Origin: a virus
Lineage: Duplodnaviria; Caudoviricetes
Length of the DNA stretch: 40,549 nucleotides
Virus record (IMG/VR): IMGVR_UViG_3300034130_000054
Span: 1 to 40,549 of that record
Reading direction: 5' to 3' (one strand)
Both the position numbers and the translations under genes were made by a program. Below, one piece after another: positions 1-40,549 of this stretch (the stretch's first letter is position 1; each line of letters starts with the position of its first letter). Under the pieces are notes generated by a model. That model made no database searches, was not told where the DNA came from, and was given only the letters and a program-made list of their open reading frames with translations.

Positions 1-138
1 GGGTGTGCCACTGGGGGGGGGGGGGTGGGCAAGCTGTCCGACAGATATCGACAGACCAGGACAGCCCATGACGGTAAACGATCGCCCCAGCGCACCCAGC
101 GCGCCACGTCTATTGACACCATCCCGCGTCCAGCCCAT
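1..138. repeat. Terminal direct repeat or assembly overlap, left copy
   Basis: Matches 40412-40549. Exact over 13-138, with T/A differences at positions 4 and 12 next to a 13-G run. Confidence 0.95.
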
Positions 139-183: not shown

Positions 184-831
184 ATGCCCACTCGCTCACA
201 CCACCGCCGCTTGAACTGGAAAGACACCAAGACGGATATGCTCTGGTATATGCGAGGACTCGCGGCTCTACCCAGTCGCCTTGACACCTTTGACAGTAAC
301 CACGGTACGAAGGCGGAGGTGTTCGCGTTTCGCCAGCGCCTTTATGCTTGGCGCCGGCTCGTCTTAGAAGATCTTGCCGATCCAGCTAACATGGCAGTCC
401 AACAGCCCGCTGTCGAATGGCTGAGACAAGCGATTAGTCCTCGCGTGACGAAAGAATGGCTGGACTTAGTTATTCTTCAGATAGTGCCCTTTGAGGATGG
501 AAGTTTCATCGTTAGGGGGAGGCTTGCGCGGCCGATGTGCGGGCCAGATATTGTATTTGAGGATGATCCAGGACGGCTCGCCGACCTCGACCTAATGCGG
601 CAGGTGGTCGCGCGGGCGCAGCAGGATAAAGCCACGCCATGGGGCGCCGGCCACGTCGGCTCGGCCGCCGCCACCGGCTGCTTGCCGGGCGGCGGCGGAC
701 CATGGGCGACCTTAGCCCAAGAGTTGGCCGTGCCCGAAGCCGCTCTCGCCCGGCGCGCGACTGAACTTGAGGCGGATGGCATTCCGCCGGCGGCCCTAGC
801 GGCCGCCTTGCGGGCGGAGTTGGCGGCATGA
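184..831 (+). CDS. Hypothetical early protein
   Basis: Part of ORF 25..831. ATG 184 has GGAG at 172-175. The stop overlaps the next start (ATGA). Confidence 0.65.
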   Translation: MPTRSHHRRLNWKDTKTDMLWYMRGLAALPSRLDTFDSNHGTKAEVFAFRQRLYAWRRLVLEDLADPANMAVQQPAVEWLRQAISPRVTKEWLDLVILQIVPFEDGSFIVRGRLARPMCGPDIVFEDDPGRLADLDLMRQVVARAQQDKATPWGAGHVGSAAATGCLPGGGGPWATLAQELAVPEAALARRATELEADGIPPAALAAALRAELAA

Positions 832-1400
832 CCACGGTATGCGTCGAGCCGGTAATCGGTTTCCGGTCGCGCAAGGCGGCACAGTTGTGTGCGTGGTTCG
901 CTACGCATGCTGACGGATGCATTGAAAAGTTGAAGCTGATCGAGCTTGTCTATCTTTCAGAGCGGACGCACCTGTCCACTTACGAAGATTCAATGCTGCG
1001 TGATGAGCTATACTCATTGCCTCACGGACCGATTTGTTCGAGCACCCTAGACGGGATAAATGGGGTAATTCATAAAGAAATTTGGGATGACTTTATTGCG
1101 AGGAACGGCAATATAGTCGTGTCTATGAAAAAATTTAGCCGATCTGAATTGGATGACTTGAGCGATATCGAAATTGACATCGCTGAAGAAATCTGGTCAC
1201 GCTTTCGCAATATGACAGCTTCTCAGATTAGGAACTATACTCATAAGAACTGCCCGGAATATACCGAGATAGAGTCAGGTCGTTTGCTAATTTCATATCG
1301 AGACGTTCTCAAAGCTGTCGGAAGTGACAATGCAGACATAGTGGAGCAGGATATAACGACTATGCGAAAAGAAGAAAAAGTGTTAACGCAGTCTATGTAA
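828..1400 (+). CDS. Panacea/DUF4065 (SocA/GepA-like) antitoxin domain protein
   Basis: Motifs KAAQ...[21 protein letters not shown] and [14 protein letters not shown]. Visibly more AT-rich than its neighbours. Confidence 0.85.
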
Positions 1401-2886: not shown

Positions 2887-2919
2887 CCACCCTGTACCCG
2901 TGCTGAGGGTACAGGGTGG
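2887..2919. other. Perfect 13-bp stem-loop
   Basis: CCACCCTGTACCC, 7-nt loop, GGGTACAGGGTGG. No U-tract. Overlaps the start of dispersed motif copy 1. Confidence 0.8.
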
Positions 2920-2946
2920 AATGTCGCCCGGTAAACAATCAACCAT
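2915..2946 (+). promoter_or_regulatory. Dispersed intergenic motif, copy 1
   Basis: GGTGGAATGTCGCCCGGTAAACAATCAACCAT. Confidence 0.75.
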
Positions 2947-7014: not shown

Positions 7015-8412
7015 ATGCCAATCGTTAACCTCTTCGACGTTATCGTCCCTAAAGGGCGCATTCGTCGGGAGTTCTCCGAGCAAGCGCAGGAAGAACTCAT
7101 CACCTCCATTCTCTCCAAGGGGCTTCTCCATCCCCCTGTTGTCACCTCGGACAATATCCTCCTTGCCGGTGAACGCCGCCTTCGAGCCCTCTCAGCGATC
7201 GCTGAAAGGGGCCTTGATCATGAGTGCAACCACAAGACCCTTCGCCCCGGCCTCATCATGGTCACGCTTATCCGTGATCTTTCCCCCGCGGATCGACTCG
7301 AAGCCGAACTTGAGGAAAACACTATCCGCCAAGACGTGTCTTGGCAGGAGAAAGCCCAAGCCGTCGAGGCCCTTCATCACCTTCGTTCCCTCCAGAAGGT
7401 CGAAACTACTGCCCCTGGCCTCGAGCCTCCGCCTCAAACTATCATCGAGACGGCAGCCGAACTCCACCGAAAGCCTCCCTCCGAAGTTTCCCCCGCCGAA
7501 AAGAGTGATACGCGCGCTGACCTTTTGGTCGCGGCTTGGCTGACTTCCTCCCCCGATGATCGAGAGGTTGCCAACGCTAAGACACGCTCGGAAGCTCTCA
7601 AGCTGATAGAAATCCGCCTGGAGGATGAGAAGCGCGTAGCTCTATCAAAGCGATTCCTCGCGAGCCGCCCAGCCGCCGGGAACATCCTCAAGCAGGGCGA
7701 TTGCATTAACCTCTTGGCCGAGACGCCGGCCAATCTCTATGACGTGATCATCGCTGATCCCCCTTGGGGGGTTGACGCTGATCAATGGACGAACGGGCTT
7801 GCTCAGCGAACACATAGCTATGCCGATGATCTTGCGCTCTCCGATCGCATCAACGAGGCGATCGCTGTTGAGGGCTTCCGGGTCTGCAAGCCCAAGGCGC
7901 ATCTCTATCTCTTCTGCGCTTTTCGCCGCTTCGAAGCCCTCGCGCATGTCCTCCGCTCAGTTGGGTGGGATGTGTGGCCACGTCCCTTGATTTGGTTCAA
8001 GGGAATTAGTACTGCCCCCGACTCTGAGCATGGCCCCGCCTATGCCTACGAGTGTATTATCTTCGCGAACAAAGGGCATAAACGTGTCCTTTCCGTCCGA
8101 CCTGATGTTATCGTTTGCTTTAAGGGCGCGCGCGACGAACGAGCAGCCGTCAAGCCACCTGGGGTTTACTTTGACCTCCTCCGCCGAAGTGTTCTGCCGG
8201 GCGATGAAGTTCTTGACCCTTGTTGTGGGGCAGGACCTATATTCCCCGCGGCCAACGCCCTCGAGGTGCGCGCGACAGGCTACGATATCGCTGACGACGC
8301 CATCGGACTCGCGAGCCAGCGTCTAACCGAGTCCTACGTCCACTTCGAGCCTGAAATCACAACCCGCAGCACACACTCGCGGGGAGGCGTTAGGGTTAAG
8401 AAGGGGGCGTGA
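7015..8412 (+). CDS. ParB-like N-terminal domain fused to a beta-class amino DNA methyltransferase
   Basis: SILSKGLLHPPVV...LLAGERRLRA...EENTIR (ParB). DPPW catalytic motif precedes KP...VLDPCCGAG (SAM binding). Confidence 0.85.
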   Translation: MPIVNLFDVIVPKGRIRREFSEQAQEELITSILSKGLLHPPVVTSDNILLAGERRLRALSAIAERGLDHECNHKTLRPGLIMVTLIRDLSPADRLEAELEENTIRQDVSWQEKAQAVEALHHLRSLQKVETTAPGLEPPPQTIIETAAELHRKPPSEVSPAEKSDTRADLLVAAWLTSSPDDREVANAKTRSEALKLIEIRLEDEKRVALSKRFLASRPAAGNILKQGDCINLLAETPANLYDVIIADPPWGVDADQWTNGLAQRTHSYADDLALSDRINEAIAVEGFRVCKPKAHLYLFCAFRRFEALAHVLRSVGWDVWPRPLIWFKGISTAPDSEHGPAYAYECIIFANKGHKRVLSVRPDVIVCFKGARDERAAVKPPGVYFDLLRRSVLPGDEVLDPCCGAGPIFPAANALEVRATGYDIADDAIGLASQRLTESYVHFEPEITTRSTHSRGGVRVKKGA

Positions 8413-8422
8413 ATGGAGGACG

Positions 8423-8459
8423 TGAATGGTGGAATGTCACCCGGTAAATAATAAACCAT
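8423..8459 (+). promoter_or_regulatory. Dispersed intergenic motif, copy 2
   Basis: TGAATGGTGGAATGTCACCCGGTAAATAATAAACCAT. Confidence 0.75.
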
Positions 8460-8676
8460 GCCCCAAGGTCATAATCAACGCAACCCCTCGATCTATTTCG
8501 AGTTCAGTGTCACCTGGCCCGAGCCCTTCAAGCGGGCTAGCGACCGGCAGGAAGCGCAAAGGAAAATCGAGTTAGCCTTTAGCGCGGCCTGTCGAGTTCT
8601 TAAACTTCCCCCTCCTACTCCCTACGCTCGCGCGGGGCTTAGGCACCGCAAGGATCCTTCGCATGAAATGGATTGA
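8458..8676 (+). CDS. Hypothetical protein
   Basis: 72 aa, between the methyltransferase and the polymerase. Confidence 0.55.
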   Translation: MPQGHNQRNPSIYFEFSVTWPEPFKRASDRQEAQRKIELAFSAACRVLKLPPPTPYARAGLRHRKDPSHEMD

Positions 8677-10321
8677 AAGTGGCAACCCTTCCAGTAGCCT
8701 TTGGATAGTGGGTGAGGCTCCCGGCCGCGATGAGATTGACGGAGGAGCGCCCTTTCTTGGGGCCTCCGGCCAGTTACTAACGCAACTCCTCGGCGAAGCC
8801 GGCTTCAATCGGCGCGATTTCTTCATCACCAATGTCTGCCACGAAAGGCCTCCCAACAATGATATATCCTCGTTCTTCGCTACCAAAACTGCGGCGAAAG
8901 CTGAGCATCTGCCAGATTATAATGGTCACTACCCTCGCGAGCCTGTTCAATCTGGTCTTGCTCATCTTAATAGCCTACTGTTGGAGCACCACCCTTCCTT
9001 CATCCTCGCTTTCGGCAACACTGCCCTTTGGGCTCTAACCGGCCTGTGGGGCATCCTCAAGTGGCGTGCCTCCATCCTTCTAACAACGGCCAATAGTGGC
9101 CGCGAGGGCATTAAGCTAATCCCCACGTTCCACCCTGCAGCCATTCTTCGCGACTGGCCCCTTAGGAATATTGTTCTTCAGGACCTCCGCCGAGCCCGGC
9201 GGGAGAGCCTCTTTCCTGAGATACACTACCCCGCTTGGCAATTTACTATTCGGCCGACTATTGATCAAGCTCTCAATGCCCTTTCAGCCCTTCAAGCACG
9301 CTTACTCGACGAGAATGAGGAGCCTGTTTGGCTCTCCTGTGACATTGAAACGCGCAAGCCCCAAATCTCTTGCGTGGGTATTGCTTGGGATAACCTTCAT
9401 GCTATTTGTATCCCTTTAATGGATAATAAATCCCCCGAGGGTTATTGGTCGGCGGAAGAAGAACGCCTTATTATCTGCGCGCTGCGAGATGTGCTTACCC
9501 ACCCTAAAGTTCGCCTGATCTTTCAGAATGGCGCTTATGATCTTCAATACTTTGCCAAGCAATACGGCTTCCTCCCTCGCATCGCCGACGATACAATGCT
9601 TATGCAACACGTCGCGTTTACTGGGATGCGAAAGGGCCTTGACTTTATCTCTAGCCTCTATTGTGAATACTATCGTTACTGGAAGGATGACGGCAAGGAG
9701 ATTGCCATCACTGGGGATGAGGATAAGCACTGGAGTTATAACTGTGAGGATTGCGTCCGAACGTTTGAGTGCTGGAAAGTGCTACAGCGCATCCTTAAGT
9801 CCTTCGGCCTGAAGGAGCAATATCGCTTCCAAATGGATGATGTTTTTCCAATTGTGCTCAGGATGATGCTCCGCGGCGTTCGTATTGACCAATGTCGAAA
9901 GGCTACTGTCCGCCACGAGCTTAACGACTTTATCCTAAGGGGGCAGGCATGGCTCCGTCAAGTTCTTGGTCATGACCTAAACGTTCGATCGACGCGCCAG
10001 ATGCAACTCCTCTTTTATGGCGACTTCCGCATCCCCCCAGTAATAAGCCGGAAAACCGGCAGCCCTACGCTCGACGACGAAGCCCTCGACAAGATCGTCC
10101 GGAAGCAGCCCTTTCTCCGCCCGCTTATCCAAATGATCCGAGACGTTCGCTCGGCTGGCGTTACCATAAGCAATGTGCTTGATGCTCGGATTTCAAGCGA
10201 TGGGCGCGCTCGCTGCACATATAACCTAGCGGGCACTGAAACCCTTCGCCTATCTTCCTCTGAAGATTCTTTCGGGGAGGGCTTTAACCTTCAGAACCTA
10301 ACAAAGGGGAACGAAGAATGA
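8663..10321 (+). CDS. polA: DNA polymerase A, N-terminal part: family-4-like uracil-DNA glycosylase, 3'-5' exonuclease and thumb
   Basis: VGEAPG, PFLGASG, ITNV, FHPAAILR (UDG). CDIET, QNGAYD, YNCED (Exo I-III). TETLRLSSS, NLQN. Confidence 0.9.
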   Translation: MKWIESGNPSSSLWIVGEAPGRDEIDGGAPFLGASGQLLTQLLGEAGFNRRDFFITNVCHERPPNNDISSFFATKTAAKAEHLPDYNGHYPREPVQSGLAHLNSLLLEHHPSFILAFGNTALWALTGLWGILKWRASILLTTANSGREGIKLIPTFHPAAILRDWPLRNIVLQDLRRARRESLFPEIHYPAWQFTIRPTIDQALNALSALQARLLDENEEPVWLSCDIETRKPQISCVGIAWDNLHAICIPLMDNKSPEGYWSAEEERLIICALRDVLTHPKVRLIFQNGAYDLQYFAKQYGFLPRIADDTMLMQHVAFTGMRKGLDFISSLYCEYYRYWKDDGKEIAITGDEDKHWSYNCEDCVRTFECWKVLQRILKSFGLKEQYRFQMDDVFPIVLRMMLRGVRIDQCRKATVRHELNDFILRGQAWLRQVLGHDLNVRSTRQMQLLFYGDFRIPPVISRKTGSPTLDDEALDKIVRKQPFLRPLIQMIRDVRSAGVTISNVLDARISSDGRARCTYNLAGTETLRLSSSEDSFGEGFNLQNLTKGNEE

Positions 10322-11097
10322 AAAAGCTCGCGATGCCTAACGTCCGAAAGATGATAGTGCCCGACCCCGGCTTTATCCTGGTTGATGCTGATCTAAAGGG
10401 CGCGGATGCTCGTGTGGTTGCTTGGGAGGCTGACGATGAACCCCTCAAGGCTGCCTTTCGGAAAGATGTTGATATCCACGCCTTCAATGCCGAGACACTC
10501 TGGCCGACAGGCCATGCCCTCCGAGATTATAAGTTAAAAACCCCCGAGGGGCACTATGTCTTCCCTGAGCTTGACCCCAAGCGCCACAAGGCCAAGACCG
10601 CAATCCACGCGGTGGATTATGGCTGTAAAGAGCGCACACTCGCATCTCACCTCAATTGCACCACAGGCGAGGCAGCCATCTTCATAACTCACTGGTTTAA
10701 TCACCACCCAGGCATTCTCGCGTGGCAACAGCTAGTTGCCCGAAGGCTCTACCAAAGCCAAAGTATCACCAACGTTTGGGGCTATCGCCGTCCTTATTTC
10801 GACCGGGCTGAGAGTCTCCTCCCCAAAGCACTTGCTTGGATAGGCCAATCAACTACCGCGATCGCGATCAATAAGCTTATCGCCAACCTCGTCAAGTGCG
10901 TTCCAGAGGTCGAGGTCCTCCTCCAAACCCACGATAGTGTAACCTTTCAGGTTGGGCAAGATCGCTTTAGTGCGCTTTGGCCCGCGATAAAGGCGGCCTG
11001 TACAGTCACTGCTCCCTACGAAGATCCACTGGTGATGCCTGTTGAGTTCGCCATGAGCGATAAAAGTTGGGGCGATGTTAAGGAGATCAAGGAATGA
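10318..11097 (+). CDS. polA: DNA polymerase A, C-terminal palm and fingers
   Basis: Motif A DADLKGADAR, motif B RHKAKTAIHAVDYG, motif C QTHDS. Confidence 0.9.
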   Translation: MKKLAMPNVRKMIVPDPGFILVDADLKGADARVVAWEADDEPLKAAFRKDVDIHAFNAETLWPTGHALRDYKLKTPEGHYVFPELDPKRHKAKTAIHAVDYGCKERTLASHLNCTTGEAAIFITHWFNHHPGILAWQQLVARRLYQSQSITNVWGYRRPYFDRAESLLPKALAWIGQSTTAIAINKLIANLVKCVPEVEVLLQTHDSVTFQVGQDRFSALWPAIKAACTVTAPYEDPLVMPVEFAMSDKSWGDVKEIKE

Positions 11098-16383: not shown

Positions 16384-17265
16384 CTACCCTCCTAAAGAGG
16401 ATAGTGCGCTAAGCACGCTTGAACTACTTGGTAACATGTTGAGCAAGCTTGAACCCGTCCCCGCACTACCAAGCAAGGAGGACAATAGGCCATTTTGGCC
16501 ACCAAGCACCACTGGCTGACTCTGGATTTGCTGTTGCTGGCCAAGTAACTGGAGAATGTCCTGGAGCATCGTCTGGGTGTTGGTGTTGGTTTGATTAACG
16601 CCTGCTGCCGTCGCGGTATCAGCCGTTTGCTGAGCAGTTTGGGCGTTTGTCCCGCCCTGTAGCGTATTTATGAGAGTTGTGATGGGACTTTGCGAGACGG
16701 CCGGCATATTACTGGCAGCCGCCAATCGGTTCGTTGTGTTCGCCTGCCCTGTATCATAAGCCAGAGTTCCCTGCGTCTGCGCTAGTGTATTGCTGAAGTT
16801 GTTCGCCGCTTGGGCGACCGCATTCTGGGCAGCGGTGCTCTGCGCTCCACCTGCGCTTCCCCCGAGCGCGCTAACAACCGTGGGCATCGTTGTTTGGTTG
16901 AAAGTTTGCTTGAGGGGGTTCAATACATTGGTGTTGTAGTAGCCTGTGAGGTCCTGCGGCGTGGAGTTCATCACCCCATTAAGCGTGCTGATGGCGTTCT
17001 GCTGCCCCGCTGAGGTTGAATTGTTACCCGAGGCAAAGTTTTCCAATCCTGCTAGGCTCGTAGTCTGAACTGAGTTCAAAGGCGCGGACGTTTGCGCCGT
17101 ATTCGCCTGAAGGGCCGACTGCGCCGTTCCATTAGACCCTTGAAGGGCAGCCATCAATTCCTGCTCTGCGGTCGTCTGGGACGCGTTGAGGCCACTTTCC
17201 AGCGATGGCATGTAGGATGTAACGCTTGGGGACGACCCAAATATCGAGCTAACAAGTCCGCCCAT
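16384..17265 (-). CDS. DNA ejection / pilot protein (putative)
   Basis: MGGLVSSIFG start, Gln/Asn/Ser/Ala-rich, follows the GNAT gene. Confidence 0.6.
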   Translation of the reverse strand: MGGLVSSIFGSSPSVTSYMPSLESGLNASQTTAEQELMAALQGSNGTAQSALQANTAQTSAPLNSVQTTSLAGLENFASGNNSTSAGQQNAISTLNGVMNSTPQDLTGYYNTNVLNPLKQTFNQTTMPTVVSALGGSAGGAQSTAAQNAVAQAANNFSNTLAQTQGTLAYDTGQANTTNRLAAASNMPAVSQSPITTLINTLQGGTNAQTAQQTADTATAAGVNQTNTNTQTMLQDILQLLGQQQQIQSQPVVLGGQNGLLSSLLGSAGTGSSLLNMLPSSSSVLSALSSLGG

Positions 17266-17746
17266 TTGAGGATACTCCAAAGATGATTACATCGCGCATC
17301 TCTCCCTCGCGAAGAAAGGCGTTATAGATTGCGCCTTCCCTCTGGAAGCCGCACGCCGCCACAAGATGACAAGCTGGCCGATTGAAGGAGGGAATGAGAG
17401 CACTTATCTTTTTCGTCCCGCTCGCAAAGGCAATCTTGATAACTCCAAGCACGGCTGCCCTCTTGAGTTGCCCCGAGGTGCCCCGACGAAATCCCAGGTG
17501 TCCCTCTTCCCATCGTTGCCCCCGGCGGGAGAGCATCACAAAGCCAATCGAGCGCCCCTCGGCAAAAAAGAGCCATACCCGCCGGAAGGGACTACGAGCA
17601 TAACCCTCAAAGTCTATCTTCTCGACTGGAGGGTAGCCATCTTCCATCTGAGGGGCAAAGACTTCTGGAAGTCGCATCAATTCTATGTAGTCCTTCCAGG
17701 GAAACCCCTCATGGCTACTATCAACAACGTCTATAGTTTGGGGCAT
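17249..17746 (-). CDS. GNAT-fold acetyltransferase-like tail-module protein
   Basis: IPSFNRPACHLVAACGFQREG...DVIIFG is a RimJ/RimL-like C-terminus. Confidence 0.8.
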   Translation of the reverse strand: MPQTIDVVDSSHEGFPWKDYIELMRLPEVFAPQMEDGYPPVEKIDFEGYARSPFRRVWLFFAEGRSIGFVMLSRRGQRWEEGHLGFRRGTSGQLKRAAVLGVIKIAFASGTKKISALIPSFNRPACHLVAACGFQREGAIYNAFLREGEMRDVIIFGVSSNGRTC

Positions 17747-17748
17747 CG

Positions 17749-19572
17749 TTACTTCTCCGAGGCTGTCATGGTCTTGAAGGCAAACCATGAGAGCTTAAAG
17801 TTAGGGTCAGTTCCCTCAAGTAAGAGGCGCACGCTTCCCACAGTGAAAGAGCAGTCCACTTCTGCCCGCCCCCAGCTTGTTCCCATTACAAGATTTGTCC
17901 CTAGCACTCTCCAAGTCTGTCCAGCATCCGTCGAGAACTTGACTGAGGCGATAGTCCCCTCGCCGTAGAAAGCTAGACCGTCGAGTGTCTCCCAATCTTG
18001 TGGCAACGTGTAATCCTTCGTGGTGTAAGACCACGGGATGGGTTGACCATTATCGGTTTGAGTTATATAGTTATAGAGATAGACCTGGTGATCAAGCGCG
18101 CCACAGAAGGCTACTTGTGCCTGTGTTGGGAGGGGCACTCGATCAGCCCATGTCTTCGTATTCTCTTGCCACGTCTCACTTCCAAGGTCAATCCAACGAA
18201 GCGAAGCCCCAACGGAATAGAACTCCCCAAGAGCGATGAAGGAAAGTAACCCTGAGAAAACGCGAGTAAACCAAGCACCCGTCTTTAGGTTAAAGCGGCG
18301 TAGTGTGTTTGGCCAGGGCGCTGAGCCAGAGGGATAGAGCACCCATACCTCGTCAAGGGTTGGCACATAGAAGCCAATTACTTGATCAACCGCCTGGGGG
18401 TTAAGATCGCCAAGATAGCCTATAAAATGCTGAAAAATCTTGTCGCCAATATCTTGCACGTTAGAGTCGCCGGCATAGTCGTAGATACCCGAGTCAGAGA
18501 TGATTACTGAAGCCATCTTCGTCGGCGTAACCGAACGTCGGCCAAGTGTACCGATCCGAATAAGCGTATAATTATACCAAAAGACTTGATCGCCTACTCC
18601 ATAGTAATAAGCAACAATCACGGTCTTTCGGCGGGTAATAACCATATTCTGCCCAACAAGAAAAGCCCCCGTAATTTCATCCGAGGTATCAATAAGATCG
18701 TCAAATCCCGCATCAAGTGTCGTCCAGTTTGTAGGGTCGCTAGTCGCGCTTCGTCGAACACGATAGGAATAGAGATTGCCCTCTTCTGTAGTGCCAAAAA
18801 GGCACATAACACTTTGAAAATGCACCGCATAGCGAGCAGCCGCTATACCCGCTGCAACCAAGCCAGGAAGATCGTTACAAAGCGCCCCATCAAAGTATTG
18901 AACGTGATCCACGCCATTGGTGATAACAAGCCAACCATGCAAAGCATCCGGTGCCCACGAAACGGCGAGTGTGCCATTTGTATTGAAGGTTGGTAGGGGG
19001 AGGATAGTGCTTCCTATGGGCAGAGTGCGCCCAACGGGCAAGTCTGTGGCAATACCTACAGGTGATACGGTCCCTTCGGCCACGCCCACAAAATACAGCC
19101 CATTATCTTGCACAATAGCGACTAGCTGGCCAGTTATCCAAGTGGCTGCTCCGGTAAACGGAACATACGGCGCCGTGCCAGTGCCATCAACCTCAGACAA
19201 AGTCGTCGCACTATCGGTGAAACTCGTCGGAACTGGCACCCAATCAGCGAGGGCTTCGTCATAAAGATAAAGGGTTCGAGTCGTGACAAGTAAGGAATAC
19301 AAGATATTATTCGGGCTAACCCAAGCTATCGGAGCTAAAGGCGTCCCTACAACAGGGGAACCAATTGGGGCTAGGCCGAAATCAACGGATAAAACTTTAT
19401 CTCTGTAAGCAAGATTTTGACTAGCGGGCGTCTCGTTATCGGCCAGCTGGTCAGGAGGCACGGAGTCATTGAGGCCCCCCCGAAGATCAGAGATAGTTTT
19501 ATACTCCGGCCGCAGTTGGGCTGGAGTTGGCGCTATAGGGCCGCCAGTCGCAAGAGTAGGGAGGTATACCAA
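17749..19572 (-). CDS. Tail tube / nozzle protein (P22 gp10 or T7 gp12-like)
   Basis: 607 aa, beta-rich. DLRGGLN...PDQL...SQNL N-terminus. Position in the tail module. Confidence 0.7.
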   Translation of the reverse strand: MVYLPTLATGGPIAPTPAQLRPEYKTISDLRGGLNDSVPPDQLADNETPASQNLAYRDKVLSVDFGLAPIGSPVVGTPLAPIAWVSPNNILYSLLVTTRTLYLYDEALADWVPVPTSFTDSATTLSEVDGTGTAPYVPFTGAATWITGQLVAIVQDNGLYFVGVAEGTVSPVGIATDLPVGRTLPIGSTILPLPTFNTNGTLAVSWAPDALHGWLVITNGVDHVQYFDGALCNDLPGLVAAGIAAARYAVHFQSVMCLFGTTEEGNLYSYRVRRSATSDPTNWTTLDAGFDDLIDTSDEITGAFLVGQNMVITRRKTVIVAYYYGVGDQVFWYNYTLIRIGTLGRRSVTPTKMASVIISDSGIYDYAGDSNVQDIGDKIFQHFIGYLGDLNPQAVDQVIGFYVPTLDEVWVLYPSGSAPWPNTLRRFNLKTGAWFTRVFSGLLSFIALGEFYSVGASLRWIDLGSETWQENTKTWADRVPLPTQAQVAFCGALDHQVYLYNYITQTDNGQPIPWSYTTKDYTLPQDWETLDGLAFYGEGTIASVKFSTDAGQTWRVLGTNLVMGTSWGRAEVDCSFTVGSVRLLLEGTDPNFKLSWFAFKTMTASEK

Positions 19573-23794: not shown

Positions 23795-24162
23795 TACTTG
23801 ATCTCCTCAGCAGCGTGAGCTGCCTGTTGTTCTTCGAAATGCTTCCGCCGCATGATCTGGTTCGCCTGAGCACGGACCCGAACGATCGTAGAATAGATAG
23901 GCATGATTGCTCTCTCAAGTCGGCCCTCTGACATCAGTCCAAGCCGGAGGACGTAGGGAGTAACTTCGCCGTCAGGGGCGAACCTTATGAGGAGCAAGCC
24001 ATCTGTGGGCGCCGTCGTGACGCCGGCATCGTCGGCCAGCGTCTGAAGTGTGTCAAGCCTTTCCCCATGGTTGATTTGTCGAACCCGAACAGCGTTGGCT
24101 GCGAGTTCGCTCCTATTTGCAGTTGAGGGTTTCTCGGTAACAGCGGTTGTATTCATATCCAT
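23794..24162 (-). CDS. Hypothetical protein
   Basis: 122 aa, coupled to both neighbours. Confidence 0.65.
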   Translation of the reverse strand: MDMNTTAVTEKPSTANRSELAANAVRVRQINHGERLDTLQTLADDAGVTTAPTDGLLLIRFAPDGEVTPYVLRLGLMSEGRLERAIMPIYSTIVRVRAQANQIMRRKHFEEQQAAHAAEEIK

Positions 24163-24461
24163 CGTCCTTCCTTCGCCAGAAAAGCGGAGCCCATATCCTC
24201 CGCGTATTGCGAGTAATTGCCGTTATCCCGCGCGACTTTCTTCAGTTCGCCCATCGAAGAGATATGCTGACCCGTCTCGCTTATGTGCTCATAGAAACCC
24301 GCGTGGAACACAATTGGGCGGCCGATCGAAAAGTCCCTCCCAAGAAGCTGCCCACACTGTGGGCAGATATTTAGAAGGGCCTCGAAAGTTTCCATCTCCT
24401 TGATGGAGCACTCCCGCTCAAGACTATGCCCCTCAGAACAGACATAACGGTAGGTTGGCAC
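24153..24461 (-). CDS. FmdB-like zinc-ribbon protein
   Basis: MPTYRYVCSEGH...CPQCG. GGAGG RBS. Confidence 0.75.
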   Translation of the reverse strand: MPTYRYVCSEGHSLERECSIKEMETFEALLNICPQCGQLLGRDFSIGRPIVFHAGFYEHISETGQHISSMGELKKVARDNGNYSQYAEDMGSAFLAKEGRWI

Positions 24462-24475
24462 TTCTACCTCCCTCT

Positions 24476-24512
24476 ATGGTTGATTGTTTACCGGGTGACA
24501 TTCCACCATTCA
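24476..24512 (-). promoter_or_regulatory. Dispersed intergenic motif, copy 3
   Basis: Reverse complement TGAATGGTGGAATGTCACCCGGTAAACAATCAACCAT, 35/37 identical to copy 2. Confidence 0.75.
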
Positions 24513-26324
24513 TCCCCTCTGTGGAACCTGCCCCCCTCCACCCTGTATTGCTCTTAGTTGCGGTAGCATCTGCTGATATTGCTGCGCGCTCATAGGGCTA
24601 CCAGGGCTCATCCCTGGCCCTCCTCCCGCTTTCGCCGCCGCGGAGGCCGCCATCTGGCGTGCCTGCTCGGGCTGGAGCATCATATCGTCGAACTCTGCCC
24701 CGTGGAGTGCCCTCAAAAGGTAACTAGTAAGTCGGTGAGGGTCGATCAAAGGGTTCTTCGAGAGAAGCCCATAGACTTGCACAGCCTTCTGCTCCTTCCG
24801 TTCCTTGGTCTCCGGAAGGCTCGAGTCGGGGTCGATCATCACATTATAGCCACCGTTGCGTAGTTCCTCTGGGCGAAACTTGACCCAAATCTGCACTCCT
24901 CCCGGCCCAACCAGATCAACAATCTGATCCTCCGACCACCGATTGAAGATGATTTGATGGGTCTGTTCCATCAAGGCAACCATAAGGTCAGCTACTGTAT
25001 CCCTTCTCTCGTCCATCCGGATTTGAGTGGCTTGGTTGACAATATTAGCTTCGGTCGCCGATCTATCCGCCGATCCCGGAGCATACTCCCCAAACTGGTT
25101 AGCGCCCAGCCCAAGGATTTCCTGCACGTCCCTCTCAACGAGGGCATCCATCGTTACGAGGCCCTGAGGAATATTTGCCGCTTCCATCGGCCTAACATCC
25201 CCCATTGGCGAGCCATCTACTTGCACAACAGGATCGACACTTTCATCGGTGAGCTTTGCCATTTCATCTGGTGTCAGAGCATCGCGCTTGGCGAGCATCT
25301 TCACGAGCGAAAGCCGCCGGTGTTTCATCGCCAGCGTTCTAATCTCGTTGATTTCCCTCTGCTGGGGGTCGAGTATCTGCGCGTCGGGCACGCCCCAAAA
25401 GTAGCTATCATCCTCATTAAAGATGAGAGGGAAGAAAGGAACATGCTTGTCTGGGCTCAACTCGTCGTCGTCGCAGTAAAGAATTTTATTGTGGTGGTAG
25501 GGCGCGAGGACGAAGACCAGTCCGCTCTTCTTGTCCCTAATTTCTACGAGGTCAACAAGACCCTCTTCCCGAGGCCGACTGGTTTGATCGACTTCGCTAA
25601 AGTAACTCTTCGCAACATTGATATCGGCCGTGTGCTTAAATCGCGGGTCTGCCCTCACGTCATCAACATGCCGCCTAACCCAATGGGCCACCCACCTCGT
25701 GCTGTTAATATCTGTGCATCCAACCGGGACGATGAAAGAACCTGGATGCACCGACATAAACCAAGGCATATTCGGCTGCACCAAGTCGTTAAACTCTGTC
25801 GAGGAATGTAGTTTATCCTTCCCCTCTGGTGCGTCGCTATCAAGAAAGTCAGGCGTCGGCGTAAATTCGGCCCCATATCCAAGTTTCCCCACTCCCGTTC
25901 CGAACATGAAAGCGTTCTGCGTCATTAGCTTAATCGCGCGCTTAACGTGCATCGTCTGGACGAGTTTGTTGTCAATCCGCTCAAGTATCTGGGCAAGCAC
26001 GTAATGATCGTCACCTGGCTTTGTCGAGGAAATTGCGATTGAAGGATTACGGAAATAAACTCGAGGAACGAGCGTACGGACCATCTTAAAAAAGATATTA
26101 ACAGGCAGGACGCCTGACTCATACTCTCCCCGATAATATTTACGCCATGTTTGCCATCTTGCCTCATAGGCACAATGCTTCCGGTAGGCTATCCCTTTCC
26201 GAATTTGGGTGAGCCACCACGAGCCATCAGGCTCCCCGCTACTCTTATAGCCCGAGTAAAGTCGAGTGCCCGGCTTTGCTGGAGCCTGGTCATTGAAGCC
26301 TTGGTTATATCCCGTGTCGCTCAT
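24510..26324 (-). CDS. Portal protein
   Basis: 604 aa between TerL and scaffold. AFMFGTGVGKLGY, FWGVPD...QREIN, RSATEA. Confidence 0.85.
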   Translation of the reverse strand: MSDTGYNQGFNDQAPAKPGTRLYSGYKSSGEPDGSWWLTQIRKGIAYRKHCAYEARWQTWRKYYRGEYESGVLPVNIFFKMVRTLVPRVYFRNPSIAISSTKPGDDHYVLAQILERIDNKLVQTMHVKRAIKLMTQNAFMFGTGVGKLGYGAEFTPTPDFLDSDAPEGKDKLHSSTEFNDLVQPNMPWFMSVHPGSFIVPVGCTDINSTRWVAHWVRRHVDDVRADPRFKHTADINVAKSYFSEVDQTSRPREEGLVDLVEIRDKKSGLVFVLAPYHHNKILYCDDDELSPDKHVPFFPLIFNEDDSYFWGVPDAQILDPQQREINEIRTLAMKHRRLSLVKMLAKRDALTPDEMAKLTDESVDPVVQVDGSPMGDVRPMEAANIPQGLVTMDALVERDVQEILGLGANQFGEYAPGSADRSATEANIVNQATQIRMDERRDTVADLMVALMEQTHQIIFNRWSEDQIVDLVGPGGVQIWVKFRPEELRNGGYNVMIDPDSSLPETKERKEQKAVQVYGLLSKNPLIDPHRLTSYLLRALHGAEFDDMMLQPEQARQMAASAAAKAGGGPGMSPGSPMSAQQYQQMLPQLRAIQGGGGQVPQRG

Positions 26325-27577
26325 TTAAGCCAACCCCATTCTTCAAGTTGTTTAATGTCCCCCTCAACGCGGAGACCGATATCTCGCCGGTATTGCTTAT
26401 CGCCAACCCGGATGTTGTCAAGTGTGCGATAGACTCGTCGACGGGCCATAGCTACGTCTTCACCTCGAGCGGTCGCCACAAGAGTTAATCCATCAGCACC
26501 GCCCGTCTTGAAGAACTTATCCTCCTTATTAAGGCAAACATCACAGAGCCATAAATGGCTGATATTGTTCTCGTTAACCCCAAGAATAGGCTCGCCCCAT
26601 ACACCTTTTAAGCCAGGCGCTTCTGTTGGGTAGGGAGGCACTGTAAGCCGCACACCGATTAGGTAGTCTGGTGAAATCTCCATCTTTTCCATACGGCCAA
26701 GAGCTATTTCTTGGAAAAAATCACCAACACCGCCTCGGACTCCCTCAAGTAGAGCCTCAATAGCATCATACCCCAACCGCGCGGTCGCTTCTAGCGCGAA
26801 TGCGCCCTTCGCGTTAACTATACAGTTCACGTCGAGCGGCCCTCTATAGCCCGCGCGGACGAGGAAGGGCTTCATCCTTTCGACGGTTGCCTTCGTTAGA
26901 CGATTGCTCTCCCGAGCAATTACCACATTCCCCGCGCAGCCCGTGTTAGGGCCAAGATTGCCCTCCATAAAACGCTTTTCCTCGAAGGTGTGGTTAAACG
27001 GCTTAATAAAATCCCGACCGTTAAACCAACCCTCTGTGGAAACCTCAACCCCTTTAATAATCCTTTGCACGATTATACTTGTCGCGGCCTTATACTGATC
27101 AAAGACCCACTCAAGTTGATCAGGGTCCTTCACCAAGCGAGTTGTGGCACAGCCGAGGTTACCATCAGCTTTCACGACAAACCCTTCACCCCAATCTAGC
27201 CCAACAAAGAACCCATGGGCTTTTTCCGCTGAGGAGAAAGACCAAGTTTCTGGCACCTCAATCCCAACCTCCGCGAAAAGTCTCATTCCTTCCGCGCGAT
27301 CAAGCTCAAGTTTATCCATCGCCGGTGAGCAGGCTATGTAAGGTTTACCAAAAGTCTTAAAGGTCTTTTCAAAGGAGCCTACCCCAACCATATCCACAAG
27401 GATGAAGTCGCACCACCGCAGTTTTTCACGCCAGCTCTCGGGTCTTTCAACAATGCCAAAACCCGAGTGCTTATAGGCCGGATCCTTGATCCACATCGCG
27501 ACATGGTGGCCCTCAAAAGCCATCCGCTGGGCTAACCCTTGAGCGTCGCCTAACTTGGATATAATGAGAATATTCAT
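26321..27577 (-). CDS. Divergent PurD (GAR synthetase)-like ATP-grasp ligase
   Basis: KLELDR, FVVKADG, GVEVS, EEKR...GNLGPNTGCAG, EATARLG, C-terminal QYRRDIG. Confidence 0.85.
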   Translation of the reverse strand: MNILIISKLGDAQGLAQRMAFEGHHVAMWIKDPAYKHSGFGIVERPESWREKLRWCDFILVDMVGVGSFEKTFKTFGKPYIACSPAMDKLELDRAEGMRLFAEVGIEVPETWSFSSAEKAHGFFVGLDWGEGFVVKADGNLGCATTRLVKDPDQLEWVFDQYKAATSIIVQRIIKGVEVSTEGWFNGRDFIKPFNHTFEEKRFMEGNLGPNTGCAGNVVIARESNRLTKATVERMKPFLVRAGYRGPLDVNCIVNAKGAFALEATARLGYDAIEALLEGVRGGVGDFFQEIALGRMEKMEISPDYLIGVRLTVPPYPTEAPGLKGVWGEPILGVNENNISHLWLCDVCLNKEDKFFKTGGADGLTLVATARGEDVAMARRRVYRTLDNIRVGDKQYRRDIGLRVEGDIKQLEEWGWLK

Positions 27578-27930
27578 CTCGCATTCCAGGGCTTGAAAGA
27601 AAGAAGTCGCTCCGGCGGGAAATCAGACCACTTCCCTGTGAAGGTCAATGCCCGATCGTCGATCGTCACGAAGGCAGGCGGCTTCTCTTTCCAAAACTCG
27701 ACGCAGGCAGGCAAACCCCATTTAACCCACCAGACTTTCATTGCATCAAGACCTGGCTCTTGCCCAGAACGACTTGAGTAAACCACAAGGCGAAAATGCT
27801 TACTGGCTTCTTGGAGCCAATTCGCAAGTCCCTCAGTCGGACCGTCAGCTATCTCTGCGATACCTTTCCATCCCGAGCTATAACTATGCAATACACCGTC
27901 GAAGTCAAGCACAACGATTGGCTTTCTCAT
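27574..27930 (-). CDS. HAD-superfamily phosphatase / nucleotidase-like protein
   Basis: VLDFDGVLH (motif I), YSSR (II), KPPA (III), IDDRA (IV). Confidence 0.8.
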   Translation of the reverse strand: MRKPIVVLDFDGVLHSYSSGWKGIAEIADGPTEGLANWLQEASKHFRLVVYSSRSGQEPGLDAMKVWWVKWGLPACVEFWKEKPPAFVTIDDRALTFTGKWSDFPPERLLSFKPWNAR

Positions 27931-35875: not shown

Positions 35876-36327
35876 TAGGGCTGCACCTGACAGAGAAGGC
35901 CATGATCCATGTAGAGGCTGCCAACAGGTAGCGACCTATGGTTCACGATGGGAATGGCACCTGGCGTTGTGGCTTGCGGGAGAGATGAAAGGATTAATGC
36001 GAGTCCGGCGGCTGTAAGCCATTGTGCGAGAGGGAGGGTTTCGCCACTGGCGGCAGTAACTACCAAAGGGGAAGCATCCCCCCCGGTGCTCCCCTGCAGG
36101 AAATTAACCCACTTTGCGGTCGCGCTAGACCCTGTAACGATGCAGATCCAAAGCTGCGCGTTAGTCGAGTCCCACACAATATCAGGCGCTTCACTTGCGG
36201 AGCCCGCTTGACCTGCGAGCTGTCCATTTGGGTTGCCCACCGTAGCGGCGATCATATTAATGACCTTGACGATCTGGACGCCCGCTGTTACCAATCCCGC
36301 AAAGGGCTCCTGGGTGGTGCCGCTCAT
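35875..36327 (-). CDS. Virion-associated hypothetical protein
   Basis: GNPNGQLAG...WDSTNAQLWIC...W motif. Confidence 0.6.
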   Translation of the reverse strand: MSGTTQEPFAGLVTAGVQIVKVINMIAATVGNPNGQLAGQAGSASEAPDIVWDSTNAQLWICIVTGSSATAKWVNFLQGSTGGDASPLVVTAASGETLPLAQWLTAAGLALILSSLPQATTPGAIPIVNHRSLPVGSLYMDHGLLCQVQP

Positions 36328-36848
36328 AGCGCGCTCCCCTCAAGCTCAAGCAAGGGGTCGAGTGCTGGCGTTTCCCTTGCCGGCCCCGCCGTCACGGTGA
36401 GGCTAGCCTGCCCCCGCCGGGCGGCGATCTCGAGCATCTTCTGCACTACATCCTCCGCAGTTGGCCGCTCGTCCACCCGCTTCTCGTAACGTCCCCTCGA
36501 GCGCCAAACCATGTCCGCTGCCCGAAGGGCAATCGCAGGGTCCTCGTCTTGGAGTTTCTCCCCTACGACCTTCGTTGCGCTGGCAAATAGCTCGTTGTCG
36601 ATATCCGTGAAACGGTTTTGAACGACCTCCTTGACAAGGGGATCGTTCAGAACGCGGCTTATGGAGACGGGTGTCATCCCCATAATCTGGGCGATATCGT
36701 TGCCCTTCATCCCGGTGAGGTGGAAGTTAACGATCCGAAGGTGCTTGCCAGTCAAACGGGTAAGGTTAAGCGCGCCTGACTGCCTGCGGCGACCAGAGAG
36801 CTTTTCCTCATCATACCTCGTTAGCCCGCCGCTACCGTCCATCCTCAT
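36324..36848 (-). CDS. HTH protein, probable terminase small subunit
   Basis: GMKGNDIAQIMGMTPVSISRVLNDP (HTH) followed by a helical region with IALRAA. Start uncertain (36848 or 36842). Confidence 0.55.
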   Translation of the reverse strand: MRMDGSGGLTRYDEEKLSGRRRQSGALNLTRLTGKHLRIVNFHLTGMKGNDIAQIMGMTPVSISRVLNDPLVKEVVQNRFTDIDNELFASATKVVGEKLQDEDPAIALRAADMVWRSRGRYEKRVDERPTAEDVVQKMLEIAARRGQASLTVTAGPARETPALDPLLELEGSAL

Positions 36849-37044
36849 CGTCCTCGCGGTCCGACCAACCCTTCTTCTTCCGCCGACCGGCAGCCTTCTT
36901 CGCGACCGCGCCCCGCCCGCGGCCGCCCTTAGAGATGAACTTCGACTTCGCAGCCATCTTCTTGGCGCCCTTACCATCCGCTCCCCGCGCGGAATGGTTG
37001 GCCTCCATAAGGGCATCCGTAAAGGACGAAAGATTGTTGGCCAC
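36832..37044 (-). CDS. Small Lys/Arg-rich protein
   Basis: GGGAGG RBS. KGAKKMAAKSKFISKGGRGRGAVAKKAAGRRKKK. Confidence 0.55.
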   Translation of the reverse strand: MANNLSSFTDALMEANHSARGADGKGAKKMAAKSKFISKGGRGRGAVAKKAAGRRKKKGWSDREDDEDGR

Positions 37045-37047
37045 TCG

Positions 37048-37254
37048 TTAATCCTCCCGATCCTTTGGCTTGCGGCCAGGATGAGCGATATGGCCCTGGT
37101 GCTCGTGGGCCTCCTTAAGCGAAGCATGCCCGTGGGGACCGCTCGAGGCGCTCCTTGGTCCAGCGCCCTGCTTACTTGTCGAGCCTGGACGATGGCCCCC
37201 GGAGGGGCCTTCCTTACTGCTCCCGTTCCCGCCCTTACCGCCAGTGTGTTTCAT
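37048..37254 (-). CDS. Small Gly/Lys/His-rich disordered protein
   Basis: 68 aa, fits the operon spacing. Confidence 0.5.
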   Translation of the reverse strand: MKHTGGKGGNGSSKEGPSGGHRPGSTSKQGAGPRSASSGPHGHASLKEAHEHQGHIAHPGRKPKDRED

Positions 37255-37294: not shown

Positions 37295-37741
37295 TTAAGC
37301 GGACTTCGCCCCCTTGAGGAAGCTCACCCAGGCACCGCCCCCGAGGGAGGTAATACCCTGCACCTCGAATACAGCCCGTGCCCCACCACTCAGCGTTGCG
37401 CTAACGCTCGAAGCCCCGCCGTCGATGCTGTCCGCGCCCTGCGTGTCGAGCAAGGCTGCGACAGTCGCATTATTGAAAACGTTCACATCTCCGCCAAGAC
37501 CCACCACCGTGGCCACTGGGAGGCTGAAGTGCGTGGCGCTTGCGCTCACAACCCCAAGGGTATTAACCGCCGCCGCGAGAGTCGGCCCGCCTCCCCGAAC
37601 AGAGCCACCAGCCGCGACACTTGCCACACCCTTCTGCCCAAAGGCCAAAACCTTCGGCAGCGCCACTCGCCCGAGGGCGGGCTGTGGTGTCACCATGGCA
37701 AAGTCAATATCGCTGCCAACTGGAAGAACTTCTACCATCAC
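37295..37741 (-). CDS. Ala/Gly/Val-rich virion-like protein
   Basis: 148 aa, coupled to the upstream gene. Confidence 0.6.
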   Translation of the reverse strand: MMVEVLPVGSDIDFAMVTPQPALGRVALPKVLAFGQKGVASVAAGGSVRGGGPTLAAAVNTLGVVSASATHFSLPVATVVGLGGDVNVFNNATVAALLDTQGADSIDGGASSVSATLSGGARAVFEVQGITSLGGGAWVSFLKGAKSA

Positions 37742-38121
37742 TTTTCCGAACGCTGTGCGTCCGCCTCCTTAACAATTCGATCGTGCTCTGCCCAAGGAAG
37801 CCCTAGTTCCTCAACCACAATCCGCTCGACCCTCGTCGCAAGGACATGCTGCACATGATAGGGCGCGTTAGGTTGGTCGCCCGGCTCGCCCTCTTCGTTA
37901 AACTTAAGGTCGAACGCATCGACCACATCCGCGTTGATGCCTGCTTGCTCGCAGTAGAGGGCTTCCGTTAGCTCATGCAGGATAACGCCAATCTCACTCC
38001 GCCGGTCGGCCATCTGGCTAACCCGCACTCGAAGGGTGCGGCCGTCGGCGGAGAAGAACCAATCCCCCACCGTCGAATACCTCTGTCGCCGAGCGGGAAT
38101 TACCTTGATCTCGATCTTCAT
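37738..38121 (-). CDS. Conserved-looking phage protein with HExxE putative metal-binding motif
   Basis: QRYSTVGDW...ILHELTEA...EPGDQPNAPYHVQH...W. Confidence 0.7.
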   Translation of the reverse strand: MKIEIKVIPARRQRYSTVGDWFFSADGRTLRVRVSQMADRRSEIGVILHELTEALYCEQAGINADVVDAFDLKFNEEGEPGDQPNAPYHVQHVLATRVERIVVEELGLPWAEHDRIVKEADAQRSEK

Positions 38122-38436: not shown

Positions 38437-38466
38437 GGTGGAATGTTTACCGGGCGACATTCCATA
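38437..38466 (-). promoter_or_regulatory. Dispersed intergenic motif, copy 4 (perfect-stem variant)
   Basis: Reverse complement TATGGAATGTCGCCCGGTAAACATTCCACC. Confidence 0.7.
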
Positions 38467-40153: not shown

Positions 40154-40312
40154 CTGCCCACCCGGCGCGTTCCGCGCCCTGCCCGCCACCACCATGCCAG
40201 TCCCGCCCGCCGGCCGCCAGCAGCCTATCCTAGGCCCGCGCTGCGCTAGCGTAACGAACCGCCCTGCCCCTGGACCCGCCAACTGGCCTGTCAGCTGGTT
40301 TGGTGGTTGGGG

Positions 40313-40475
40313 CTGTCGATATCTGTCGATGCCTGTCGGACAGCCTGCCCATACCCCCCCCCCTTAGTGCTCTCCCTTCCATATTTGAAAATTTTTTTTT
40401 TAAGAGAGAAGGGGAGTGCCACAGGGGGGGGGGGGGTGGGCAAGCTGTCCGACAGATATCGACAGACCAGGACAG
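40313..40475. repeat. Long imperfect inverted repeat around an AT-rich core
   Basis: Left arm CTGTCG x3 then C10. Core ATATTTGAAAATTTTTTTTTTAA. Right arm G13 then (C/G)GACAG x3. Confidence 0.85.
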
Positions 40476-40549
40476 CCCATGACGGTAAACGATCGCCCCA
40501 GCGCACCCAGCGCGCCACGTCTATTGACACCATCCCGCGTCCAGCCCAT
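40412..40549. repeat. Terminal direct repeat or assembly overlap, right copy
   Basis: Matches 1-138. Confidence 0.95.

Follow-up and report, generated by a model that had tools for sequence, protein, structure and literature searches.

A PurD-derived ATP-grasp ligase gene beside the portal gene of tailed phages, present in predicted active and inactive forms

The ligase gene and its locus

The window analysed here comprises all 40,549 nucleotides of the IMG/VR virus record IMGVR_UViG_3300034130_000054 (Duplodnaviria; Caudoviricetes) and represents a whole circular genome with a 138-nt terminal repeat (completeness 97%). Replication genes occupy its left arm, and a podovirus-type virion operon its right arm. 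In this operon, a gene for a PurD-like ATP-grasp protein, hereafter the ligase, is situated between the gene of a small HAD-fold phosphatase-like protein and the portal gene, with the terminase large subunit gene (terL) ahead of both (Table 1). A preliminary description of this DNA, made from the letters alone, had given the order terL, HAD, PurD-like gene and portal gene, with ATGA overlaps at 27574-27577 and 26321-26324, and both order and overlaps were found in the open reading frames (ORFs). The HAD gene begins at the ATG at 27930, with GGAG ahead of it, and a gap of 4 nt separates it from the end of terL. This DNA was likewise assembled in run X1, possibly its source, and all four genes are kept on one piece in a strain of about 95% identity from freshwater run X3. 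In the related strain, the ligase and HAD genes are both under purifying selection: third codon positions account for 15 of the 19 differences towards the 5' end of the ligase gene and for 15 of the 21 within the HAD gene (40 of the 45 differences being listed).

Table 1. Genes and sequence elements of the window; the lineages named are those described in the text.
Feature	Position	Strand	Remarks
Terminase large subunit (terL), 532 amino acids	27935..29533	minus	PHROG/Pfam; upstream neighbour in nearly all relatives
HAD-fold phosphatase-like protein, small and capless, 118 amino acids	27574..27930	minus	DFD...SSRS...K...DD; accessory gene, translationally coupled to ligase
PurD-fold ATP-grasp ligase, 418 amino acids	26321..27577	minus	Catalytic set intact, PurD substrate residues replaced
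Portal protein, 604 amino acids	24510..26324	minus	PHROG/Pfam; ATGA-coupled to and co-inherited with ligase
Zinc-ribbon protein	24153..24461	minus	Conserved right behind portal in the window's lineage
Small QRYxTxGDW/HExxE protein	37738..38121	minus	10 kb from ligase here; direct neighbour mainly in the second lineage
Small conserved protein, candidate small terminase	36324..37127	minus	Present in 44 loci; some 7 kb upstream of terL, with lysis genes and fibre-like genes in the interval
GNAT gene	17249..17788	minus	Between nozzle-like and ejection-type genes
Unannotated ORF, 268 amino acids	25..831		End overlapped by Panacea gene
Panacea (SocA-like) antitoxin domain	828..1400	plus
ParB-like domain and N6/N4 DNA methylase fusion	7015..8412	plus
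Family A DNA polymerase, first gene	8663..10321	plus	Carries fused uracil-DNA glycosylase domain
Family A DNA polymerase, second gene	10318..11097	plus
28-bp element, copy 1	2916..2943	plus
28-bp element, copy 2	8429..8456	plus
28-bp element, copy 3	24479..24506	minus
28-bp element, copy 4	38438..38465	minus
Imperfect inverted repeat, 82 nt	14..67 and 40310..40478		At genome junction, overlaps the terminal repeat; possible origin or packaging site

Fold and substrate site of the ligase

A structure model of the ligase built from a 99-sequence alignment reached a predicted local distance difference test (pLDDT) score of 95.2, against only 32.5 for a single-sequence model. The top structural matches, comprising the first 15 rows of a Foldseek search and the first 13 of VIA-align, were all glycinamide ribonucleotide (GAR) synthetases, followed by PurT at Z 26. 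The best match, 2yw2 (Z 37.6, root-mean-square deviation 3.0, 389 aligned residues, 21% identity), shares with the model the four-domain N/B/A/C ATP-grasp fold. When searched against viral structures, Foldseek returned distant ATP-grasp proteins only. The ligase scored 34.7 bits with Pfam GARS_A, above the cut-off of 27, and 75 bits with TIGR00877, below the curated PurD cut-off of 288; GARS_N had no match in it.

To the extent that PMC2978367 and PMC8449271 describe residue roles in PurD, we mapped these roles onto the ligase by sequence alignment to four bacterial PurD. In the relevant part of PMC2978367, Arg13 and Glu14 form the site for phosphoribosylamine and its phosphate. In the ligase, this GGRE site is rebuilt as SKLGDA, with Asp11 in place of Arg13 and Ala12 in place of Glu14. 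Likewise, the glycine site, whose R[LF]GDPE motif is given as Prosite PS00184 in a passage of PMC3261824, reads RLGYDA, with Tyr270 replacing Asp295 and Ala272 replacing Glu297. In the C-domain, Arg385 is replaced by Leu364, with Asp362 beside it; Tyr274 is replaced by Asp249, and the B-loop GLAAGK by GNLGCAT. Both substrate sites thus read as the preliminary description had them (ISKLGDAQG at residues 6-14, RLGYDA at 267-272), and every ATP-grasp motif that it quoted is present (VVKADG at 134-139, GVEVS at 176-180, KR..GPNTG at 201-213, ExxxR at 263-267 and YRRDIG at 396-401).

Lys136, Glu178, Lys201, Glu263 and Arg267 are kept from PurD, and the position of Asp217 is held by Glu199. The eight catalytic-site residues that are invariant in the family (E91, K136, E199, K201, D249, N251, E263 and R267) are all present. 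With the ATP-binding lysine and glutamate and a metal-binding acid retained (K136, E178, E263, D249), as is characteristic of ATP-grasp amide ligases, the protein would be expected to work as such a ligase, and its fold and residues suggest amide formation through an acyl-phosphate. Across the family, in a redundant set of 359 rows, GGRE and R[FL]GDPE occur in none of the 337 active ones, of which 99% have D249 and 94% have Y270. In a FastTree phylogeny that included four bacterial PurD, these four formed a separate clade (SH support 1.0, branch length 1.22) with the ligase family outside it; this was the comparison with cellular PurD that the preliminary description had called for.

These results bear on whether the gene is a true purD that supplies purines as an auxiliary metabolic gene. 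The fold, the GARS_A score and the automatic database names would all agree with this, and phage purD is listed under purine metabolism in parts of two viromics papers (PMC12043954 and PMC11097641), where the identity of the gene family is unchecked. However, the TIGR00877 score, the missing GARS_N domain, the replacement of R13, E14, Y274, D295, E297, R385 and GLAAGK, and the long branch that sets the four PurD apart all argue against it. Comparison of 56 ORFs with Pfam and PHROGs and of 18 with NCBIfam revealed no further gene of the purine pathway, as the preliminary description had stated, and cells that bear a PurD-like paralogue keep a true PurD (see below). We therefore regard a purine-supplying PurD as extremely improbable. 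By its sequence, the ligase appears to have descended from PurD without being one, and the loss of substrate residues together with the TIGR00877 score bears out the earlier view of a diverged ligase with other substrates.

Conservation among virion genes, inactive copies and neighbours

One search yielded 501 proteins matching the ligase, and a profile search 921 representatives at E 1e-30 or better, among which true PurD may be counted. The viral loci fall into three groups: the window's lineage (best 80 of 105 loci used), a second lineage, whose capsid protein is unrelated (80 of 120 with flanks), and a remote branch with the motif RFGYP (65 loci). In all three, the ligase gene lies mostly amid virion genes, either between terL and the portal gene, between capsid and tail genes, or behind the largest ejection-type gene, with some members of the third group placed elsewhere. 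No close cultured relatives were found, and the sole family member in the phage collection is the metagenomic genome MW202796; the other matches inspected there are cellular-type PurD. Long fusions (889-2535 amino acids) were not found at E 1e-30, which is a weak test. Intein-like long insertions occur in P0224, P0236, P0239 and L256:8375-10648 at two conserved ligase motifs (after GPNTG/GPNCG and after E-x-T-C), and one of them matches LAGLIDADG.

The preliminary description had tied the ligase to morphogenesis genes. This link is well supported: of the 80 ligase-anchored loci of the window's lineage, 78 have terL and 74 the portal gene at a distance of up to 10 kb, most misses being contig ends. 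Conversely, the ligase is carried by 67/72 portal-anchored loci whose upstream sequence spans 400 nt or more (8/80 were too short) and, in the second lineage, by 29/32 capsid-anchored loci whose downstream sequence spans 6 kb or more (48/80 were shorter). These fractions are upper estimates, because the anchors were derived from phages that bear the ligase and no more than the best 80 loci were retained. Ligase and portal distances are correlated across genomes (rho 0.60 for 50 active copies and 0.80 for 16 dead ones), as expected of an inherited core gene. The ligase thus ranks as a near-core late gene in two or more podovirus lineages that are unrelated to each other. Two loci (L377 and L378) have a 127-amino-acid piece that resembles the N-domain by eye only. 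A predicted complex of TerL and ligase scored 0.00 (mark 0.32), which we count neither for nor against binding.

Not foreseen in the preliminary description are ligase orthologues at the same locus that are dead yet intact. The portal-anchored set holds 63 full-length copies, of which 41 have all eight catalytic-site residues and 22 have three or fewer; six more are partial, and a pattern scan added four dead copies. The dead copies are open frames of 342-413 amino acids at an unchanged position, some of them without the whole lid domain. They retain residues of the N-domain, the core and the C-domain helix (E22, H24, D62, WFNG, H341, R381, Y383 and T385). Each of the seven records searched, four of them 86-97% complete, had a single match. 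In one of two informative close pairs, the nonsynonymous distance (dN) was 0.113 at a synonymous distance (dS) of 1.73 (portal: 0.078 at 1.06), and in the other dN was 0.117 at saturated dS (portal: 0.141); on these two pairs, the dead copies appear to be under portal-like purifying selection. On an 81-row portal tree (FastTree), the dead state maps as seven changes, of which at least five are required by branches supported at 95 or higher, so that catalysis would have been lost at least five times independently. No partner gene within 10 kb was seen to be lost along with catalysis. As these dead copies are intact, single in each record, under apparent selection and of at least five origins, the ligase protein probably has a job beyond catalysis.

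The neighbours of the ligase are less constant. HAD phosphatases are recognized by the motifs DxD, S/T, K and DD, and in the HAD protein of the window all four are present and invariant (D9-F-D11, S52/S53, K83, D91-D92). Its structural neighbours are HAD/PNK-type clusters, and PF18143 scored below cut-off. The preliminary description had proposed the HAD enzyme as a possible partner of the ligase, and this did not hold: a HAD gene adjoins the ligase in 2/80 related loci (one lineage, on the ligase's other flank) and is missing from the six nearest relatives (L002-L007), the ligase occurs in 2/18 viral HAD loci (the same two contigs), 16/18 HAD relatives lie in other contexts, and none of the seven HAD-bearing records in the phage collection is among the ligase matches there. 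All 13 HAD matches in 223 ligase-anchored loci are adjacent to the ligase (3, window included) or fused to it (10), at an adjacency chance of 0.105 per gene. The fusions, with a C-terminal HAD domain of a different subfamily, belong to one second-lineage clade (L154:9197-10780 and nine related loci; also P0183). A recurrent link through about two or three independent events is possible, and the HAD gene is an optional accessory, not an obligate partner. The HExxE gene is likewise rare in the window's lineage, where tblastn found it in 2/80 loci and where it is distant from the ligase in three. Across the 223 ligase loci it occurs in 20, in 12 of them adjacent and in 17 within three genes.

The preliminary description had also considered a packaging-linked modification of nucleotides or DNA bases; in such a scheme, the HAD enzyme would take a phosphate off the substrate or the product. 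The adjacency to terL and the 13/13 adjacent or fused HAD matches would be in line with this, but the genome has no detected base-modification genes save the ParB-methylase fusion, the phosphate-binding arginines of PurD are lost from the ligase, and the HAD gene is absent in 78/80 related loci and mostly found elsewhere. As such a modification would also leave the dead copies unexplained, we consider it highly unlikely.

Other variable genes lie near the ligase. In L071:6586-7518 and seven related loci, all of one sub-clade, a nucleotidyltransferase-like gene (weak DUF6932 match) is found between the ligase and portal genes, and in L466, L472, L496 and L498 the same slot holds other variable genes with basic N-termini. 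Elsewhere in the window, each copy of the 28-bp element precedes a gene in the same orientation as that gene and contains dyad arms (TGGAATGT/ACATTCCA) that are perfect in one copy. The element, likely an operator or phage promoter, had no match in 80 related loci with up to 6 mismatches allowed.

Proposed function and comparison with known systems

Taken together, we propose, at a rough probability of 40%, that the ligase is a PurD-derived ATP-grasp protein that binds one of the phage's virion or assembly proteins and, in the window's phage, joins a non-glycine carboxylate to a cationic unphosphorylated amine. An acyl-phosphate would form as in PurD. The acceptor may be a polyamine or agmatine-type amine or a lysine side chain, because the phosphate-holding Arg13 and Arg385, as their roles are given in the sources above, are gone and Asp11, Asp62 and Asp362 are at or beside those positions. 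The donor would be a carboxylate without a free alpha-amino group, N-blocked or on a protein side chain, because two of the acids that hold the free amino group of glycine in PurD (Asp295 and Glu297) are gone. One of the substrates would be a phage protein, so that the enzyme could double as a binding or assembly factor. Such a binding role would account for a folded dead protein kept at the same operon position, and the HAD protein would be an optional recruit outside the core reaction. The retention of dead copies argues for a phage protein as substrate or partner, because a pure metabolite enzyme gives no reason for keeping them.

The relatives in cells bear on a second explanation, in which the ligase joins a metabolite acid to an amine to give a packaging counter-ion or an anti-defence metabolite, the dead copies acting as ligand sponges or decoys. 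Glutathionylspermidine synthetase is an example of an enzyme that conjugates polyamines, and PurD itself uses small molecules. A pattern scan of GTDB gave 29 matches, of which 26 are family members; some are on phage-like contigs, the majority being orphan RFGYP genes of bacteria and archaea. True PurD is also present in 5/5 tested cellular genomes that bear a PurD-like gene. Among the 44 neighbours of 15 cellular loci no recurring pathway was found, although single loci are suggestive of small-molecule chemistry: a PurD-like gene in pieces in an Omnitrophota bin (L281:4909-12312) lies near a lysine 2,3-aminomutase, two Ddl-like ligases and an LD-carboxypeptidase, and another precedes a GNAT gene. 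One Bacteroidota genome (L290 and L460, G012) has two PurD-like paralogues in addition to true PurD. Among the viral loci, 2/149 scanned neighbour proteins (of 199 listed) are amine-making decarboxylases directly next to the ligase (AdoMetDC-like and pyruvoyl arginine decarboxylase), and these, together with the HAD fusion in 10/223 loci, would fit the synthesis of a small molecule; the decarboxylases also count in favour of the first explanation. However, this explanation gives no reason for dead copies at portal-level constraint after at least five inactivations, the dead copies have lost the pocket residues that a sponge would need, and no pathway partner is conserved in the window's lineage. 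We find a small-molecule ligase rather unlikely.

A third explanation is an enzyme directed at the host, either ejected after packaging in the head or produced late, that modifies a cell-wall peptide or a defence protein, with the dead copies binding or inhibiting the target. The frequent position of the ligase in the other two groups behind the largest ejection-type gene or beside cell-wall hydrolases speaks for it, as do the other enzyme-like genes in the pre-portal interval (the nucleotidyltransferase-like gene of eight loci). Co-inheritance with the portal gene and the fixed position are unlike counter-defence genes, which turn over fast, no leader or targeting motif is evident for the ligase, and for these reasons a host-directed role seems less likely again.

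Several observations weigh against a ligase that acts on or binds phage particle proteins. The substrate pocket was read from alignments and not from atomic coordinates, the tree was made by FastTree alone, and the reverse fractions depend on the choice of anchors described above. The ligase is missing from L330 and L336, probably also from L364, and one complete second-lineage genome has no match, which means that it is not essential. In the dead copies the active site is lost, Asp11 and Asp362 included, and over the long term these copies diverge faster than the portal (mean identity 0.29 versus 0.51). In the second lineage, each of the 38 full-length copies is active, and the dead state is thus seen in one lineage only. 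The cellular relatives are orphan genes and have no virion upon which to act, and the decarboxylase neighbours are rare and confined to the distant RFGYP branch. In the clusters of neighbouring genes we saw neither a conserved C-terminal glycine (portal: glycine in 13/66, with a variable tail) nor another tag, and a C-terminal glycine of a phage protein as acyl donor was dropped for this reason. A conserved terL tail as docking site was dropped as well, as the tail persists in phages without the ligase. A search for a leader motif shared by the genes that flank the ligase gave 4 scattered matches only.

A wider reading is that several unrelated tailed-phage lineages possess a dedicated PurD-derived ligase that amidates the phage's own particle proteins, or cross-links them, while heads are being assembled; in the window's lineage, this ligase would have turned at least five times into a non-catalytic assembly factor. 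We offer this tentatively and doubt that it holds in full. The near-core status of the ligase among the late genes of two or more unrelated podovirus lineages, for which no close cultured relative was found, points to an unrecognised step in virion building or delivery. The family is large and automatically named phosphoribosylamine-glycine ligase, so that it is open to being tallied among the auxiliary metabolic genes for purines, whereas its residues and context indicate that it is not PurD. Active and dead orthologues at one locus also make it a ready comparative test of how enzymes are exapted to structural roles in phages.

Our search of the open literature found no account of this phage ligase family; the 2009 survey of ATP-grasp amidoligases by Iyer et al. 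lay outside that search. Its closest known relative is PurD (EC 6.3.4.13; TIGR00877; PDB 2yw2, 2qk4 and 1gso), with which the ligase shares the four-domain ATP-grasp fold from end to end, the GPNTG loop and YRxDIG. Unlike PurD, to which it is about 20% identical, the ligase has the GGREH, GPE, GLAAGK, RFGDPE and GGRV motifs rebuilt, a near-invariant Asp at the Tyr274 position, a Thr for the metal-site Asn and an added C-terminal WGWL helix, and its gene is placed among phage virion genes, with dead copies common. The section of Brown et al. (2011, PMC3261824) on the "extra" PurD-like proteins of Halobacteria, rrnAC0307 and Hlac_1553, judges these not to be PurD and describes a missing Asp in R[LF]GDPE and a divergent N-terminal P-loop. 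The Haloarcula member of the ligase family (L284, RFGYPA) matches this description, and by description only do we set it beside them. In contrast to the phage ligases, these are cellular orphans of the RFGYP branch, for which that section proposes no function, phage family or link to virion genes. The HAD protein resembles the small phage HAD phosphatases (PHROG 1238; PF18143 HAD_SAK_2, below cut-off), which are capless, carry the four motifs and are widespread in phages; it differs in that its type adjoins a ligase in few lineages, another HAD subfamily being fused in one clade. Finally, enzymes exapted to structural roles are described for poxviruses in the portion of Mutz et al. (bioRxiv 10.1101/2022.11.22.517515) on which we draw, and there, as here, a cell-derived enzyme fold is kept by a virus after the loss of catalytic residues. 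The two cases differ in that active and dead orthologues here share one locus in tailed phages, where the structural role would follow from their retention.

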